A stretch of DNA of 64,000 bases from Escherichia coli. Its GTDB lineage: Bacteria; Pseudomonadota; Gammaproteobacteria; Enterobacterales; Enterobacteriaceae. The notes below the pieces were generated by a model. The model worked only from the letters and a program-made list of their open reading frames with translations. It ran no database searches and was not told where the DNA came from. The stretch is from the NCBI RefSeq assembly GCF_013122565.1, contig NZ_CP053258.1; one strand, written 5' to 3'. A program made the position numbers and the translations under genes. Below are positions 3,062 to 53,564 of the stretch, piece by piece. Within the stretch, counting starts at the first letter, position 1, and every line of letters begins with the position of its first letter.

Positions 3062-4003
3062 ATGCGCGAAAAGGATTATGTCGTAATTATAGGTTCGGCG
3101 AATATTGATGTCGCCGGATATTCACATGAATCATTAAATTATGCGGATTCAAATCCAGGTAAAATAAAATTTACGCCTGGTGGAGTCGGGCGCAATATTG
3201 CACAAAACCTGGCGTTGCTGGGGAATAAAGCCTGGCTACTTAGCGCAGTAGGCAGTGATTTTTATGGTCAATCGTTGCTAACGCAAACCAATCAATCTGG
3301 TGTTTATGTCGATAAATGCCTGATTGTGCCGGGAGAAAATACGTCGAGCTATTTATCATTACTCGATAATACCGGTGAAATGCTGGTTGCTATAAATGAC
3401 ATGAATATTAGCAACGCTATTACAGCTGAATATCTCGCACAGCACCGTGAATTTATTCAGAGGGCAAAGGTCATTGTCGCGGACTGTAATATCAGTGAAG
3501 AGGCACTGGCATGGATTCTGGATAATGCCGCCAACGTACCCGTATTTGTCGATCCTGTTTCCGCGTGGAAATGTGTCAAAGTGCGCGACCGTCTAAATCA
3601 GATCCACACTCTCAAACCAAACCGCCTTGAAGCGGAAACCCTGAGTGGGATTGCGCTGTCAGGGCGTGCAGATGTGGCAAAAGTTGCTGCCTGGTTCCAT
3701 CAACATGGCCTGAACCGACTGGTATTGAGCATGGGCGGCGACGGCGTTTATTACAGCGATATCAGCGGTGAAAGTGGCTGGTCTGCGCCGATCAAAACCA
3801 ATGTCATTAATGTTACCGGAGCGGGCGATGCCATGATGGCGGGGCTTGCTTCGTGTTGGGTAGACGGAATGCCGTTTGCCGAATCTGTTCGTTTCGCACA
3901 GGGATGTTCGTCAATGGCGCTCTCCTGTGAATACACCAATAACCCCGATTTATCGATTGCCAACGTTATATCGTTAGTGGAGAACGCAGAATGTCTGAAT
4001 TAA
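3062..4003 (+). CDS. psuK: Pseudouridine kinase (PfkB family)
   Basis: 313-aa ORF MREKDYVVIIGSANIDV...; matches E. coli YeiC/PsuK; 13-nt overlap with psuG start. Confidence 0.92.
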   Translation: MREKDYVVIIGSANIDVAGYSHESLNYADSNPGKIKFTPGGVGRNIAQNLALLGNKAWLLSAVGSDFYGQSLLTQTNQSGVYVDKCLIVPGENTSSYLSLLDNTGEMLVAINDMNISNAITAEYLAQHREFIQRAKVIVADCNISEEALAWILDNAANVPVFVDPVSAWKCVKVRDRLNQIHTLKPNRLEAETLSGIALSGRADVAKVAAWFHQHGLNRLVLSMGGDGVYYSDISGESGWSAPIKTNVINVTGAGDAMMAGLASCWVDGMPFAESVRFAQGCSSMALSCEYTNNPDLSIANVISLVENAECLN

Positions 4004-4929
4004 AAATTTCCCCTGAATTATTACAAATTTCCCCGGAAGTGCAGGACGCTTTAAAAAACAAAAAACCGGTTGTGGCGCTGGAATCGACCATTATTTCTCA
4101 CGGGATGCCGTTCCCACAAAATGCCCAGACCGCAATTGAAGTTGAAGAAACTATTCGTAAACAGGGCGCAGTACCTGCCACTATCGCCATTATTGGTGGC
4201 GTGATGAAAGTGGGTTTAAGCAAAGAAGAAATTGAATTACTGGGTCGTGAAGGGCATAACGTGACTAAAGTTAGTCGTCGCGATTTACCTTTTGTCGTTG
4301 CCGCCGGAAAAAATGGCGCAACCACCGTGGCTTCAACGATGATTATTGCGGCGCTTGCCGGAATTAAAGTATTTGCCACCGGCGGAATTGGTGGTGTTCA
4401 TCGCGGGGCGGAACATACCTTCGATATTTCTGCCGATTTGCAAGAACTGGCAAATACTAATGTCACCGTTGTTTGTGCCGGGGCGAAATCTATTCTCGAT
4501 TTAGGCTTAACTACCGAATATTTAGAAACTTTCGGTGTACCGCTAATTGGCTATCAGACCAAAGCGTTGCCTGCGTTTTTCTGCCGCACCAGCCCGTTTG
4601 ACGTCAGCATTCGTCTCGACAGCGCCAGTGAAATTGCCCGTGCAATGGCGGTGAAATGGCAAAGCGGGCTGAACGGTGGCCTCGTGGTAGCGAACCCGAT
4701 CCCGGAACAGTTTGCGATGCCGGAACAGACCATTAACGCTGCGATTGATCAGGCAGTGGCAGAAGCCGAAGAACAGGGAGTCATTGGTAAAGAAAGTACG
4801 CCATTCCTGCTGGCGCGCGTTGCTGAGCTGACCGGCGGTGACAGCCTGAAATCCAACATCCAGCTGGTGTTCAACAACGCCATTCTGGCGAGCGAAATTG
4901 CCAAAGAATATCAGCGTCTCGCGGGTTAA
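3991..4929 (+). CDS. psuG: Pseudouridine-5'-phosphate glycosidase
   Basis: 312-aa ORF MSELKISPELLQISPEVQDALKNKKPVVALESTIISHGMPFP...; matches YeiN/PsuG. Confidence 0.92.
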   Translation: MSELKISPELLQISPEVQDALKNKKPVVALESTIISHGMPFPQNAQTAIEVEETIRKQGAVPATIAIIGGVMKVGLSKEEIELLGREGHNVTKVSRRDLPFVVAAGKNGATTVASTMIIAALAGIKVFATGGIGGVHRGAEHTFDISADLQELANTNVTVVCAGAKSILDLGLTTEYLETFGVPLIGYQTKALPAFFCRTSPFDVSIRLDSASEIARAMAVKWQSGLNGGLVVANPIPEQFAMPEQTINAAIDQAVAEAEEQGVIGKESTPFLLARVAELTGGDSLKSNIQLVFNNAILASEIAKEYQRLAG

Positions 4930-49123: not shown

Positions 49124-50042
49124 ATTTAGCCATGTCAGCAAACTGTTCGGCGCACAAAAAGCCGTTAACGATCTCAATCTCAATTTTCAGGAAGGGAGTT
49201 TTTCGGTGCTGATTGGCACATCTGGTTCCGGCAAATCCACCACCCTGAAAATGATTAATCGCCTGGTGGAGCATGACAGCGGAGAGATCCGCTTTGCCGG
49301 AGAAGAAATTCGTTCGCTGCCAGTACTGGAGTTGCGCCGCCGGATGGGCTATGCCATTCAATCTATTGGCCTGTTCCCCCACTGGAGCGTGGCGCAAAAC
49401 ATCGCTACCGTGCCGCAATTGCAAAAATGGTCGCGGGCGCGGATTGACGATCGTATCGACGAATTAATGGCGCTACTGGGGCTGGAGTCAAATTTGCGTG
49501 AGCGTTATCCGCATCAGCTTTCCGGTGGTCAGCAGCAACGTGTGGGAGTGGCGCGCGCACTGGCTGCCGATCCGCAAGTCTTACTGATGGATGAACCCTT
49601 TGGCGCACTGGACCCGGTAACGCGCGGCGCGTTGCAACAAGAGATGACGCGCATTCACCGTTTGCTGGGGCGCACTATTGTGCTGGTCACTCATGATATT
49701 GATGAGGCGCTACGGCTGGCAGAACATCTGGTATTGATGGATCGCGGTGAAGTGGTGCAGCAGGGCAATCCGCTGACGATGCTGACTCGTCCGGCGAATG
49801 ATTTTGTCCGCCAGTTTTTTGGACGTAGTGAACTGGGTGTGCGCCTGCTTTCGTTACGTAGTGTGGCGGATTACGTGCGTCGCGAAGAACGAGCAGAAGG
49901 TGAGGCACTGGCAGAAGAGATGACGCTACGCGATGCGCTCTCTCTGTTTGTCGCGCGGGGATGCGAGGTGCTGCCGGTGGTGAACATGCTGGGCCAGCCT
50001 TGCGGCACGCTGCATTTTCAGGATCTGCTGGTGGAGGCGTAA
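49116..50042 (+). CDS. yehX: Glycine betaine ABC transporter ATP-binding protein
   Basis: 308-aa ORF with Walker [10 protein letters not shown] and signature LSGGQQQR; overlaps yehY by 8 nt. Confidence 0.93.
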
Positions 50043-50046
50043 ACGT

Positions 50047-50778
50047 ATGAAGATGTTGCGCGATCCGCTGTTCTGGCTCATTGCTCTGTTTGTGGCACTG
50101 ATTTTCTGGCTGCCTTACAGCCAGCCGCTGTTTGCTGCCTTGTTCCCACAACTGCCACGACCCGTTTATCAGCAAGAAAGTTTTGCAGCTCTGGCACTGG
50201 CTCATTTCTGGCTGGTGGGAATTTCGAGTTTGTTTGCGGTGATCATTGGTACTGGTGCCGGAATTGCAGTCACTCGCCCGTGGGGCGCGGAATTTCGCCC
50301 ACTGGTGGAAACTATTGCCGCCGTTGGGCAGACTTTTCCGCCTGTCGCAGTGCTGGCGATTGCTGTTCCGGTGATCGGCTTTGGTCTGCAACCAGCGATT
50401 ATCGCCTTGATCCTGTACGGCGTGCTGCCCGTCCTGCAGGCGACACTTGCCGGGCTGGGAGCGATTGATGCCAGCGTGACAGAAGTTGCGAAGGGTATGG
50501 GAATGAGTCGTGGTCAGCGACTGCGTAAGGTCGAGCTACCGCTGGCGGCTCCGGTGATTCTGGCGGGCGTGCGAACTTCGGTGATTATCAACATTGGTAC
50601 GGCGACAATCGCCTCAACGGTAGGGGCCAGCACGCTGGGTACGCCCATCATCATCGGGCTTAGCGGATTTAATACCGCGTATGTGATCCAGGGGGCGTTA
50701 CTGGTGGCACTGGCGGCGATCATCGCAGACCGCCTGTTTGAAAGGCTGGTGCAGGCGCTTAGCCAGCACGCAAAATAA
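50047..50778 (+). CDS. yehW: Glycine betaine ABC transporter permease
   Basis: 243-aa membrane ORF matching YehW. Confidence 0.92.
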
Positions 50779-50866
50779 AGGTATAACCTGCGAGCATGAC
50801 GCCACCAATTCCGCCTAACGCCATAAACAGGAACAGGGCGATGACCCCAATTTTAGCTATGCGCAT
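50759..50866 (-). CDS. yohO: Small membrane protein YohO (35 aa)
   Basis: Hand translation of the minus strand: [35 protein letters not shown], preceded by aaggag SD; 3' end overlaps the yehW stop region convergently; absent from the ORF track. Confidence 0.7.
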
Positions 50867-50925
50867 AATGCACTCCTTATGTTAACGAAAGGATTGTACA
50901 GTAAAGCGCATTTGTTAACGAATCA

Positions 50926-51657
50926 TTAAATGCCGAGTGGGAAAATATCATGGCCTTGTTCTTGCCAACTGGTGAGTTGCTGCTGTTGGGCGGAGGTTCG
51001 ATTTTCACCGCACCACACCAGCAATGTACGGCCTTCGAATAGTTCAGGGCGTAGTTGATTGAGCGAGTGGGCGAGGACATCAATGCGCCATCCTTGTTGA
51101 CTGGCAATCCAGCCCTCCAGCCACAGACGGGTGGTATCCTGAATATTCCAGCCAACCACCAGCGCATCTTTACCCTGTTTTTTACGTGCCGAAGCCAGAC
51201 AAATGGCGATGTAGTTGATCAGTACGCCGTCGAGGATCGCCAGCAGCGCCTGGAGAGTCGGTTGTTGGCACTGAAGCCGTCGGCGCAGAGGAATAAACAG
51301 ATGCGTGGTGAGTGTCTGGGCGGGGTAATCCTGACCGCGCTCTTTGATCCACGTTCGCAGGCTATGCAGATTGCCGCTTTGCAGGTAAGTCAGTAATGTT
51401 TCTTGCTGATCGCGCCAGCCGTTCTGCACATCAACATTTTCATTACTGAGCAGCACTTTTACTTTGCTGACCTGCACGCCGTTGTCGATCCAGCGTTTGA
51501 TCTCGCGGATCCGGTCAATATCGGCATCGTTGAACAGCCGATGACCGCCGTCTGTCCGTTGCGGTTTCAGCAATCCGTAACGCCTCTGCCACGCGCGTAA
51601 CGTGACAGGGTTAATATCACAAAGCAACGCCACTTCACCAATTGTGTAAAGCGCCAT
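50926..51657 (-). CDS. mlrA: MerR-family transcriptional regulator MlrA (curli/csgD activator)
   Basis: 243-aa ORF MALYTIGEVALLCDINPVTLRAWQRRYGLL... (MerR HTH); matches MlrA. Confidence 0.93.
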   Translation of the reverse strand: MALYTIGEVALLCDINPVTLRAWQRRYGLLKPQRTDGGHRLFNDADIDRIREIKRWIDNGVQVSKVKVLLSNENVDVQNGWRDQQETLLTYLQSGNLHSLRTWIKERGQDYPAQTLTTHLFIPLRRRLQCQQPTLQALLAILDGVLINYIAICLASARKKQGKDALVVGWNIQDTTRLWLEGWIASQQGWRIDVLAHSLNQLRPELFEGRTLLVWCGENRTSAQQQQLTSWQEQGHDIFPLGI

Positions 51658-51878
51658 CGTCTCACCCTTGCTCGCGAGGTCCCGGTTTAACTTTAGACGC
51701 AGTTTTGCGAACCAGGTAGTTTTGCCCGTTTTTTGTGCATCTATAGGGTGATTTTATTTTTGCCAGGCGATTTTGAGTGATCGTACTCACGAATTCTCAT
51801 TTTTCTGCAAGAGTTCAAAGAAAGTTAAACGCAGGCAATGTATGTTACGCGTTTTAAAGGGAAGTGTGGTTTGCGGGT

Positions 51879-53564
51879 ATGTACGATTTTAATCTGGTGT
51901 TGCTGCTGCTTCAGCAGATGTGCGTTTTTTTAGTCATTGCATGGTTAATGAGTAAAACGCCATTATTCATACCGTTAATGCAGGTCACGGTTCGTCTGCC
52001 GCATAAATTTCTCTGCTACATCGTCTTTTCCATCTTCTGCATCATGGGCACCTGGTTTGGGTTGCACATTGACGATTCTATTGCCAATACCCGTGCGATA
52101 GGCGCGGTAATGGGCGGCTTACTCGGCGGTCCGGTCGTCGGTGGACTGGTTGGTCTGACCGGCGGGTTACATCGATATTCGATGGGGGGCATGACCGCGT
52201 TAAGTTGCATGATCTCGACCATCGTTGAAGGATTGCTCGGCGGCCTGGTACACAGCATCCTGATCCGCCGCGGGCGCACTGATAAAGTCTTTAACCCCAT
52301 TACCGCCGGTGCCGTCACGTTCGTCGCTGAAATGGTGCAAATGTTGATCATCCTGGCAATCGCCCGACCTTATGAAGATGCGGTGCGTCTGGTGAGTAAT
52401 ATTGCTGCGCCAATGATGGTCACCAATACCGTCGGCGCGGCGCTGTTTATGCGTATATTGCTCGATAAACGCGCGATGTTTGAAAAATACACTTCAGCTT
52501 TTTCTGCCACTGCGCTGAAAGTGGCGGCCTCGACGGAAGGCATTTTGCGTCAGGGGTTTAACGAAGTGAACAGCATGAAAGTGGCACAGGTGCTGTATCA
52601 GGAGCTGGATATTGGTGCAGTCGCGATTACCGATAGAGAGAAATTGCTGGCCTTTACCGGAATTGGTGACGACCACCATTTACCCGGCAAACCGATTTCT
52701 TCGACTTACACCTTAAAAGCGATTGAAACCGGTGAAGTGGTCTACGCTGATGGCAACGAAGTACCTTATCGTTGCTCTTTGCATCCGCAATGCAAACTGG
52801 GGTCGACGCTGGTAATTCCGTTGCGTGGTGAAAATCAGCGGGTGATGGGCACCATCAAATTGTATGAAGCCAAAAACCGTTTATTCAGTTCAATCAACCG
52901 CACGCTGGGCGAGGGGATTGCGCAACTGCTTTCGGCGCAGATCCTCGCCGGGCAATATGAGCGGCAAAAAGCGATGCTCACCCAGTCAGAGATCAAACTG
53001 CTTCACGCCCAGGTGAACCCCCATTTTTTGTTTAATGCGCTTAACACCATTAAAGCGGTGATCCGTCGCGACAGCGAACAGGCCAGCCAGCTGGTGCAGT
53101 ATCTTTCCACTTTTTTCCGCAAAAACTTAAAGCGGCCTTCGGAGTTTGTTACTCTCGCCGACGAAATTGAACATGTGAATGCTTATCTGCAAATTGAAAA
53201 GGCGCGCTTCCAGTCGCGGTTGCAGGTCAACATTGCTATTCCGCAAGAATTATCCCAGCAGCAATTGCCCGCGTTTACCCTGCAACCGATAGTGGAAAAC
53301 GCCATTAAACATGGGACATCACAACTGCTGGATACAGGGCGAGTGGCAATCAGCGCCCGACGTGAGGGGCAACATTTGATGCTGGAGATCGAAGACAATG
53401 CCGGTTTGTATCAACCGGTAACCAATGCCAGTGGGCTGGGGATGAATCTGGTGGATAAGCGTTTACGTGAACGGTTTGGCGATGACTATGGGATAAGCGT
53501 CGCCTGTGAGCCTGATAGTTACACCCGAATAACGTTACGACTACCATGGAGGGACGAGGCATGA
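51879..53564 (+). CDS. btsS: LytS-type sensor histidine kinase (pyruvate-responsive BtsS)
   Basis: ORF-track starts at a GTG (51864); ATG at 51879 gives 561-aa [15 protein letters not shown]...; 5TM-LytS N-terminus, GAF and His-kinase blocks. Confidence 0.9.

Follow-up and report, generated by a model that had tools for sequence, protein, structure and literature searches.

We found that the small open reading frame at 50759..50866 on the minus strand of an Escherichia coli sequence is the known and annotated gene yohO, an ordinary and already described feature of this species. The sequence examined, hereafter the window, is the whole stretch of 64,000 nucleotides taken from contig NZ_CP053258.1 (RefSeq assembly GCF_013122565.1). 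The gene runs from an ATG start to a TAA stop and encodes a 35-residue protein with a single transmembrane helix. Its convergent partner is yehW (50047..50778, plus strand), the last gene of osmF-yehYXW, which encodes a permease of a glycine betaine ATP-binding cassette (ABC) transporter. Taken together, it appears highly probable that yohO is its own transcription unit, controlled by ArcA and ended by Rho, whose product would act as a modulator through helix packing; nearly all of the uncertainty would, in our assessment, sit in the step of helix packing and choice of partner. Public annotation or published data already contain the gene and the evidence for its translation, along with the promoter, the ArcA site, the 3' end and the yehW overlap, and the outcome is a re-discovery of yohO that carries no discovery value. 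The comparative additions are incremental. They comprise the conservation across genera of the overlap and of the promoter with its ArcA box, the invariance of a motif within the helix, and natural cases in which yohO is parted from the transporter.

Identity and coding constraint of yohO

It was noted that the window peptide matches the UniRef entry YOHO_ECOLI exactly and is 100% identical to K-12 YohO (b4542, YP_588460.1). The NCBIfam equivalog NF010225 'protein YohO' was aligned over residues 1-35 of 35 at 80.1 bits, with a cut-off of 57 and an E-value of 8.8e-23. Around yohO, the window and MG1655 differ at 2 of 601 bases, both of which lie outside the gene. A match to this 601-base region was found in 5423 of the 5426 complete E. 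coli genomes. MG1655 has mlrA and yehW on either side of the gene as well, and its yehW overlap is likewise 20 nt. All 15 listed genome records annotate yehW, 'yohO: protein YohO' and mlrA under the match, one of them giving mlrA only as 'transcriptional regulator'. In its protein, its mlrA-yohO-yehW locus, its overlap, its promoter and its 3' end, the window gene shows no difference from K-12 YohO (UPF0387).

These results correct the initial annotation on two points. The peptide had been described as unannotated, which is wrong, as the gene is annotated by the Prokaryotic Genome Annotation Pipeline in the listed E. coli genomes and as b4542 in K-12. It had also been described as YohO-like, which is too weak a term for the yohO product itself. 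The structural observations were borne out: the minus strand does carry a 35-codon frame with the peptide given for it, AAGGAG does stand 6 nt 5' of the ATG as a Shine-Dalgarno sequence, and the frame does run convergently into the end of yehW over 20 nt. Its family score, distribution and conservation far exceed chance. A comparison with the annotated small proteins of K-12 returned an identical match, and the description of the product as a small membrane protein agrees with the selection, mass spectrometry and helix prediction described below.

We sought to characterize the gene across a set of 89 loci. These comprised the best 80 of 159 matching species genomes, eight loci from exact-protein look-ups, and MG1655. 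The matching genomes came from a scan of approximately 100,000 species genomes with the pattern [GS]GI[GS]GVML[AV]. The set divides into 85 Enterobacteriaceae loci outside Erwinia and four Erwinia loci (L037, L050, L054 and L089), and its genera include Escherichia, Salmonella, Citrobacter, Klebsiella, Raoultella, Kosakonia, Pluralibacter, Phytobacter, Trabulsiella, Leclercia, Shimwellia, Yokenella, Erwinia and others. Published MG1655 coordinates were converted to window positions by our own calculation. Two records in the set appear to be unusual in their labels. L086, titled Chryseobacterium sp. 18061, has an enterobacterial btsS-mlrA-yohO-yehW locus whose YohO protein and yohO promoter region hardly differ from those of L084 (Citrobacter sp. 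18056), and this record is mislabelled or contaminated. The second, an uncultured Raoultella sp. (L027), resembles Citrobacter more than Raoultella.

The coding sequence was found to be strongly conserved. In all 89 loci the ATG is kept and the frame stays open over 34-37 codons, with no frame-breaking indel. Pairwise comparison of 80 unique Enterobacteriaceae coding sequences gave a mean proportion of synonymous differences (pS) of 0.59, which is near saturation, and of nonsynonymous differences (pN) of 0.14. The resulting pN/pS of 0.24 and ratio of nonsynonymous to synonymous substitution rates (dN/dS) of approximately 0.13 indicate strong purifying selection, with the tightest constraint at codons 17-29 (0.065). 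YohO has been detected by top-down mass spectrometry (PMC12529367), and its synthesis and location in the membrane fraction are credited to Hemm et al. 2008 in a paper that cites that work. Two length classes of the protein were encountered. One has 35 residues, ends in RAG or HAG and overlaps yehW by 20 nt, while the other has 37 residues, ends in RGGVG, RGGIG or RGGAG and overlaps by 26 nt. The 37-residue class accompanies a 245-residue YehW in Klebsiella, Raoultella, Kosakonia, Leclercia and their relatives.

Relatives of YohO are narrowly distributed. The pattern scan found them in 159 of the approximately 100,000 species genomes, and an exhaustive HMMER search without the pattern, over 1.84 billion representative proteins, recovered only 17 YohO clusters, several of which are frameshifted or chimeric calls of yohO. 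Orthologues in a large protein collection bear the precomputed Pfam label PF27791 UPF0387_membrane. A Pfam-A scan of YohO returned only B12D at a sub-threshold E-value of 0.36, the PF27791 model seemingly being missing from the Pfam copy used. This B12D/MLRQ match was dismissed as generic transmembrane-helix similarity.

The yohO promoter and ArcA binding

The yohO gene forms a transcription unit of its own: its -10 element is close to consensus, its leader is short and unstructured, and its Shine-Dalgarno sequence is strong. On the minus strand, transcription starts at 50886, at the G of GTTAACA and 7 nt after the -10 element TACAAT (50893..50898), leaving a 5' untranslated region (UTR) of 20 nt that contains the Shine-Dalgarno AAGGAG at 50873..50878. 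This transcription start site (TSS) was reported by Kim et al. 2012 at 20 nt upstream of yohO, with a promoter sequence ending ...TGTACAATCCTTTCG (PMC3415461 supplement). The same study assigned to yohO a second start of low count, 310 nt upstream of the ATG and inside mlrA (PMC3415461), at MG1655 version 2 coordinate 2213369, or approximately 51176 in the window.

How well this arrangement is maintained was seen from 75 unique promoter regions, among which are 15 loci without mlrA upstream. Most other species have TATAAT at the -10 position; the variants counted were TATAAT (49), TACAAT (17), TATACT (6) and TAGAAT (3). The distance from the -10 element to the ATG is 26 nt in 57 of the 75 regions, and AGGAG occupies the Shine-Dalgarno position in 83 of the 85 Enterobacteriaceae loci. 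The -35 of the promoter is weak. The conserved region spans the 70 nt before the ATG. Its upstream part reads A-TTAATG-n-TTCATTAACA, followed by 14 nt and TATAAT, and from TATAAT it continues downstream with 6 nt, GTTAACA-n-AGGAG, 6-7 nt and the ATG. Because these 70 nt are conserved whatever gene lies upstream, the promoter belongs to yohO rather than to mlrA.

The upstream conserved block was found to be the ArcA box of Park et al. 2013, who listed a 'yohO' peak from chromatin immunoprecipitation with sequencing (ChIP-seq) or microarrays (ChIP-chip) among 176 binding regions of phosphorylated ArcA (ArcA-P; PMC3798270 Tables S1, S3, S4, S8). The 18-bp box scores 14.2 bits (PMC3798270). In the window it corresponds to ttgttaacgaatcattaa at 50912..50929 on the plus strand, spanning -26 to -43 with the TSS as reference. 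The mlrA stop codon (50926-50928) falls within these positions, and the sequence of the yohO strand shows the box to belong to a near-palindrome, TTAATGATTCGTTAA. A strict ArcA-box pattern was matched in 66 of the 85 loci, with near-matches in most of the others. ArcA-P thus binds the yohO promoter over the -35 region in vivo. In Shigella flexneri, yohO falls by log2 -2.96 (approximately 8-fold) under anaerobic compared to aerobic conditions, with no FNR effect (PMC4229854 Table 1). Because of the position of the box, its conservation and this FNR-independent anaerobic drop, ArcA would repress yohO at low oxygen, and YohO would thus be mainly an aerobic protein.

Three observations weigh against this account of the promoter. 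The yohO TSS rests on a low count in a single dataset, where the third column reads 2 (PMC3415461). The ArcA box has diverged in Salmonella. Lastly, Park et al. filed yohO as ArcA-bound but lowly expressed, with only slightly different values of 7.17 in the wild type and 7.77 in the arcA mutant (PMC3798270).

Two further candidate elements in this region were considered and rejected. A hairpin in the mlrA-yohO spacer could sequester the Shine-Dalgarno through pairing of UGUACAAUCCUU...AAGGAGUGCA. Its 5' arm is not conserved in sequence and lies outside the primary transcript, because the TSS at 50886 falls inside the loop. It was therefore rejected for yohO mRNA and could form only in RNA that reads through from mlrA. 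An MlrA operator at TGTACAAT was also rejected. The sequence resembles one half of the MlrA operator, a palindrome containing TGTACA, but the site is the -10 element, reads TATAAT in most species and matches the expected left half-site at only 5 of 11 positions. Within mlrA itself, a terminator-like hairpin with a T-run was noted at 51653-51631, within the first 39 nt of the gene (51619-51657, minus strand). It coincides with a Term-seq 3' end classed as 'internal mlrA' at MG1655 2214904, approximately 51619 in the window (PMC7815308), which suggests premature termination or attenuation just past the mlrA start codon.

Termination by Rho and the convergent overlap with yehW

The yohO mRNA ends inside yehW. 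Term-seq places its 3' end, classed as 'primary yohO / antisense yehW', at MG1655 2215813 (Adams et al. 2021, Supplementary file 1, PMC7815308). This is position 50710 on the minus strand of the window, 49 nt past the yohO stop codon and 69 nt into yehW. The same study lists a Rho region 'antisense yehW' with a score of 5.6 and p of 9e-16 (Adams et al. 2021, Supplementary file 2, PMC7815308). The region is given at MG1655 2215995, or approximately 50528 in the window, so that the stretch antisense to yehW that is ended by Rho spans 50528..50710. Within the yohO 3' UTR, inside yehW, a predicted GC-rich hairpin of 7 bp, GGCGGUC-UGCGAU-GAUCGCC, lies at 50715..50734 on the minus strand. It has no U-tract, and the mapped 3' end falls 5 nt downstream of its stem. 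Its conservation among loci is confounded by the constraint on the yehW frame and by a length difference of 2 codons. Transcripts that are terminated by Rho and then trimmed back to a protective stem typically look like such a hairpin with a nearby 3' end. A terminator scan found no intrinsic terminator between yohO and yehW on either strand and did not score the hairpin as one. The 3' regions of both genes fold no more stably than shuffled sequences (z of -0.6 and -0.7), and an Rfam scan of 49500-52500 at E<=1 gave no match. The yohO transcript, which lacks an intrinsic terminator, is ended by Rho inside yehW.

The coding sequences of the two genes share 50759..50778, which corresponds to 2215745..2215764 in K-12. 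Among the 85 loci outside Erwinia, yehW is the convergent neighbor of yohO in 84, with an overlap of 17-26 nt. The overlap measures 20 nt in 41 loci with the 35-residue form, 26 nt in 42 with the 37-residue form and 17 nt in one, and the yehW stop always lies 88 nt after the yohO ATG. The remaining locus (L075) has a damaged yehW. The gene upstream of yohO varies. It is mlrA in 70 of the 85 loci; the remaining 15 carry in its place btsS directly, an HTH_5 regulator, metG, a TonB-dependent receptor or another gene.

Natural cases were also encountered in which yohO stands apart from the transporter. In Escherichia sp. MOD1-EC7003 (L012), osmF-yehYXW is wholly deleted, while yohO and its 3' region are intact. 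The breakpoint lies 64 nt past the yohO stop, approximately 15 nt beyond the mapped 3' end. At 4100-4440 of this locus, K-12 homology resumes just upstream of bglX after approximately 270 nt of unmatched sequence. In the four Erwinia genomes, yohO sits between a DUF3833 lipoprotein gene and a major facilitator superfamily (MFS) transporter gene, and no yehW lies within 4 kb. The overlap is thus near-universal but dispensable. The Erwinia loci (approximately 3900-4240) further differ in that YohO has 34 residues, its neighbors lie on the same strand and neither yehW nor mlrA is nearby; their upstream region has a CTATACT-type -10 inside the inverted repeat GGGCGAAAGCGCTATACTTCGCCC and a weak Shine-Dalgarno.

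A further question is whether the overlapping transcripts regulate one another. The initial annotation had taken the convergent overlap to imply antisense coupling between the transporter operon and the small protein. The transcripts do overlap, as seen from the 3' end, the Rho region and the published excludon set, whereas functional coupling appears doubtful: in the one dataset checked, from Shigella, no reciprocal pattern is seen, and yohO survives loss of the transporter. An excludon in the full sense would have RNA-level coupling as the main role of the arrangement: with yohO transcribed antisense into yehW, and osmF-yehYXW transcribed through yohO and its promoter, the two would repress one another by transcriptional interference or by RNase III cleavage of the duplex, so that their expression is mutually exclusive. 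We consider this unlikely. In its favor, the yohO mRNA covers 69 nt or more of yehW, with Rho termination of the antisense RNA approximately 250 nt in, no terminator-like site was found on either strand between the genes, and 84 of the 85 loci retain the overlap while the upstream gene varies. The pair is also present in the E. coli excludome, as one of the 165 convergent pairs that recur in 50% or more of 58 E. coli transcriptomes (PMC12288877 Table 1). However, that excludome is defined from coverage overlap alone, without an effect on expression (PMC12288877). The pair resembles the convergent excludons called by ExcludonFinder (PMC12288877) in its convergent orientation, its overlapping transcripts and its lack of an intervening terminator, but differs in that the coding sequences themselves overlap and not just the UTRs.

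Reciprocal repression is likewise not apparent for yohO and yehW in the Shigella oxygen and FNR tables. The approximately 8-fold anaerobic drop of yohO has no counterpart in the oxygen-responsive table, from which yehWXYZ is missing (PMC4229854), although that table is filtered on significance and the absence is weak evidence. In the fnr mutant yehWXYZ rises by log2 1.9-3.0 while yohO is missing from the FNR table (PMC4229854), an absence that is weak evidence for the same reason. The rise of yehW, yehX, yehY and yehZ in the anaerobic fnr mutant, 4-8-fold by RNA sequencing (RNA-seq) and flow-cell reverse transcription sequencing (FRT-seq; PMC4229854 Table S2), suggests that repression of the operon for the betaine transporter depends on FNR in Shigella. 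The yohO 3' end is listed three times in a file covering three conditions (PMC7815308), which means that the transcript is present in at least two of them. A main role for RNA-level coupling also sits poorly with the protein itself, since the strong purifying selection on YohO means that the locus is not merely a generator of antisense RNA. Lastly, yohO is a complete transcription unit both where the operon is deleted (L012) and in Erwinia, which has no yehW nearby.

We instead favor a reading in which the 20-nt overlap would be mainly the frozen result of tightly packed convergent genes with a common Rho-dependent termination, and any transcriptional interference would be a secondary effect. 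A different possibility is that the 3' overlap was selected rather than accidental and links oxygen status, through ArcA, to the OsmF-YehYXW transporter. This idea arises because the position is fixed in 84 of the 85 loci while the upstream gene has been replaced repeatedly, and we regard it as rather improbable. Its route, whether antisense transcription into yehW or binding of YohO to the permease, is proposed here just as tentatively. If true, a selected overlap would couple oxygen status to betaine transport.

The same arrangement could also be read as a type I toxin system, with a hydrophobic peptide held in check by the antisense transcript from yehW. The small size and high hydrophobicity of YohO, and the convergent transcript that overlaps its gene, would fit, but we consider this reading extremely improbable. 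Cells growing normally contain detectable YohO, and an ASKA yohO clone induced with isopropyl β-D-thiogalactopyranoside (IPTG) grew well enough to be recovered in a screen based on growth. The gene is single-copy, belongs to the core genome (5423 of 5426) and is under strong purifying selection. Its unobstructed Shine-Dalgarno and 20-nt leader contrast with the long and structured 5' UTRs that type I toxins usually have, and a PADLOC scan gave no match.

One published feature within yehW was noted separately. A genomic systematic evolution of ligands by exponential enrichment (genomic-SELEX) peak of a minor sigma-factor holoenzyme, with an intensity of 4.0, lies within yehW between yohO and yehX (PMC5493296). 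Its MG1655 version 2 coordinate of 2214150 corresponds to approximately 50395 in the window.

The YohO helix and its possible partners

YohO contains an uncharged run of 27 residues from I6 to L32, with a grand average of hydropathy (GRAVY) of 1.58 and a maximum 19-residue Kyte-Doolittle mean of 2.41. AlphaFold2 predicted a single helix over residues 3-33 at a predicted local distance difference test (pLDDT) score of 92. By the positive-inside rule, two positive residues on the N-terminal side and one on the C-terminal side suggest an N-in orientation. Across orthologues, residues G19, I20, G22, V23, M24, L25, G27, Y28 and I31 are invariant, and an 11-residue core is invariant across the compared loci.

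The mechanism that we propose is drawn by analogy with other bacterial small proteins that consist of one helix. The Gly-rich face of the helix (G19, G22, G27 and Y28) would pack against the transmembrane helices of a larger partner in the membrane, and this packing may tune the activity or stability of that partner. Such modulators in E. coli and Salmonella include AcrZ with AcrB, KdpF with KdpABC, MgtS with MgtA, and CydX/CydH with cytochrome bd. YohO is like AcrZ, KdpF, MgtS and CydX in having fewer than 50 residues, one transmembrane helix, a conserved small-residue face, its own ribosome-binding site and a restriction to enterobacteria. The YehZYXW betaine transporter would be a candidate partner by the conserved position of yohO near yehW, without being a requirement.

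Several results count against helix packing as the function of YohO. The invariance of columns 18-26 is partly ascertainment, as the scan pattern covers them, although G27, Y28 and I31 fall beyond the pattern and are invariant nonetheless; the pattern-free HMMER search found no YohO relative that lacks the motif. A PDB profile search found no chain matching YohO, so that no purified E. coli complex has revealed YohO among its subunits; in this absence from solved structures it is unlike the AcrZ-type group. Finally, a literature search over 7.7 million papers found no experiment giving YohO a function or partner; yohO appeared only in lists, and UPF0387 was unmentioned.

A narrower form of the packing idea would make YohO a dedicated accessory or regulatory subunit of OsmF-YehYXW that binds YehW or YehY in the manner of KdpF, AcrZ and MgtS. 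The linkage to the end of yehW is near-universal in Enterobacteriaceae genera whatever the upstream gene, and an invariant Gly-rich helix face is expected for specific helix-helix packing. We nevertheless judge a dedicated subunit quite unlikely. The two genes are convergent and are not co-transcribed, whereas KdpF and CydX are operon members; the yohO promoter is bound by ArcA, while the yeh operon responds to loss of FNR in Shigella. The gene is intact in the Escherichia genome that lacks osmF-yehYXW (L012), and in all four Erwinia genomes it stands by the DUF3833 lipoprotein and MFS genes with no yehW within 4 kb. Permeases of the YehW type are also spread much more widely than YohO, with 4477 matches at E<=1e-30 among the candidates scored, compared to the 17 clusters and 159 genomes found for YohO; the YehW relatives listed were those at 78% identity or above. 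For the study of YohO, the handles offered are the invariant G-x-x-G-x-x-x-x-G-Y helix face, the conserved ArcA-bound promoter, and the near-universal but dispensable overlap with yehW.

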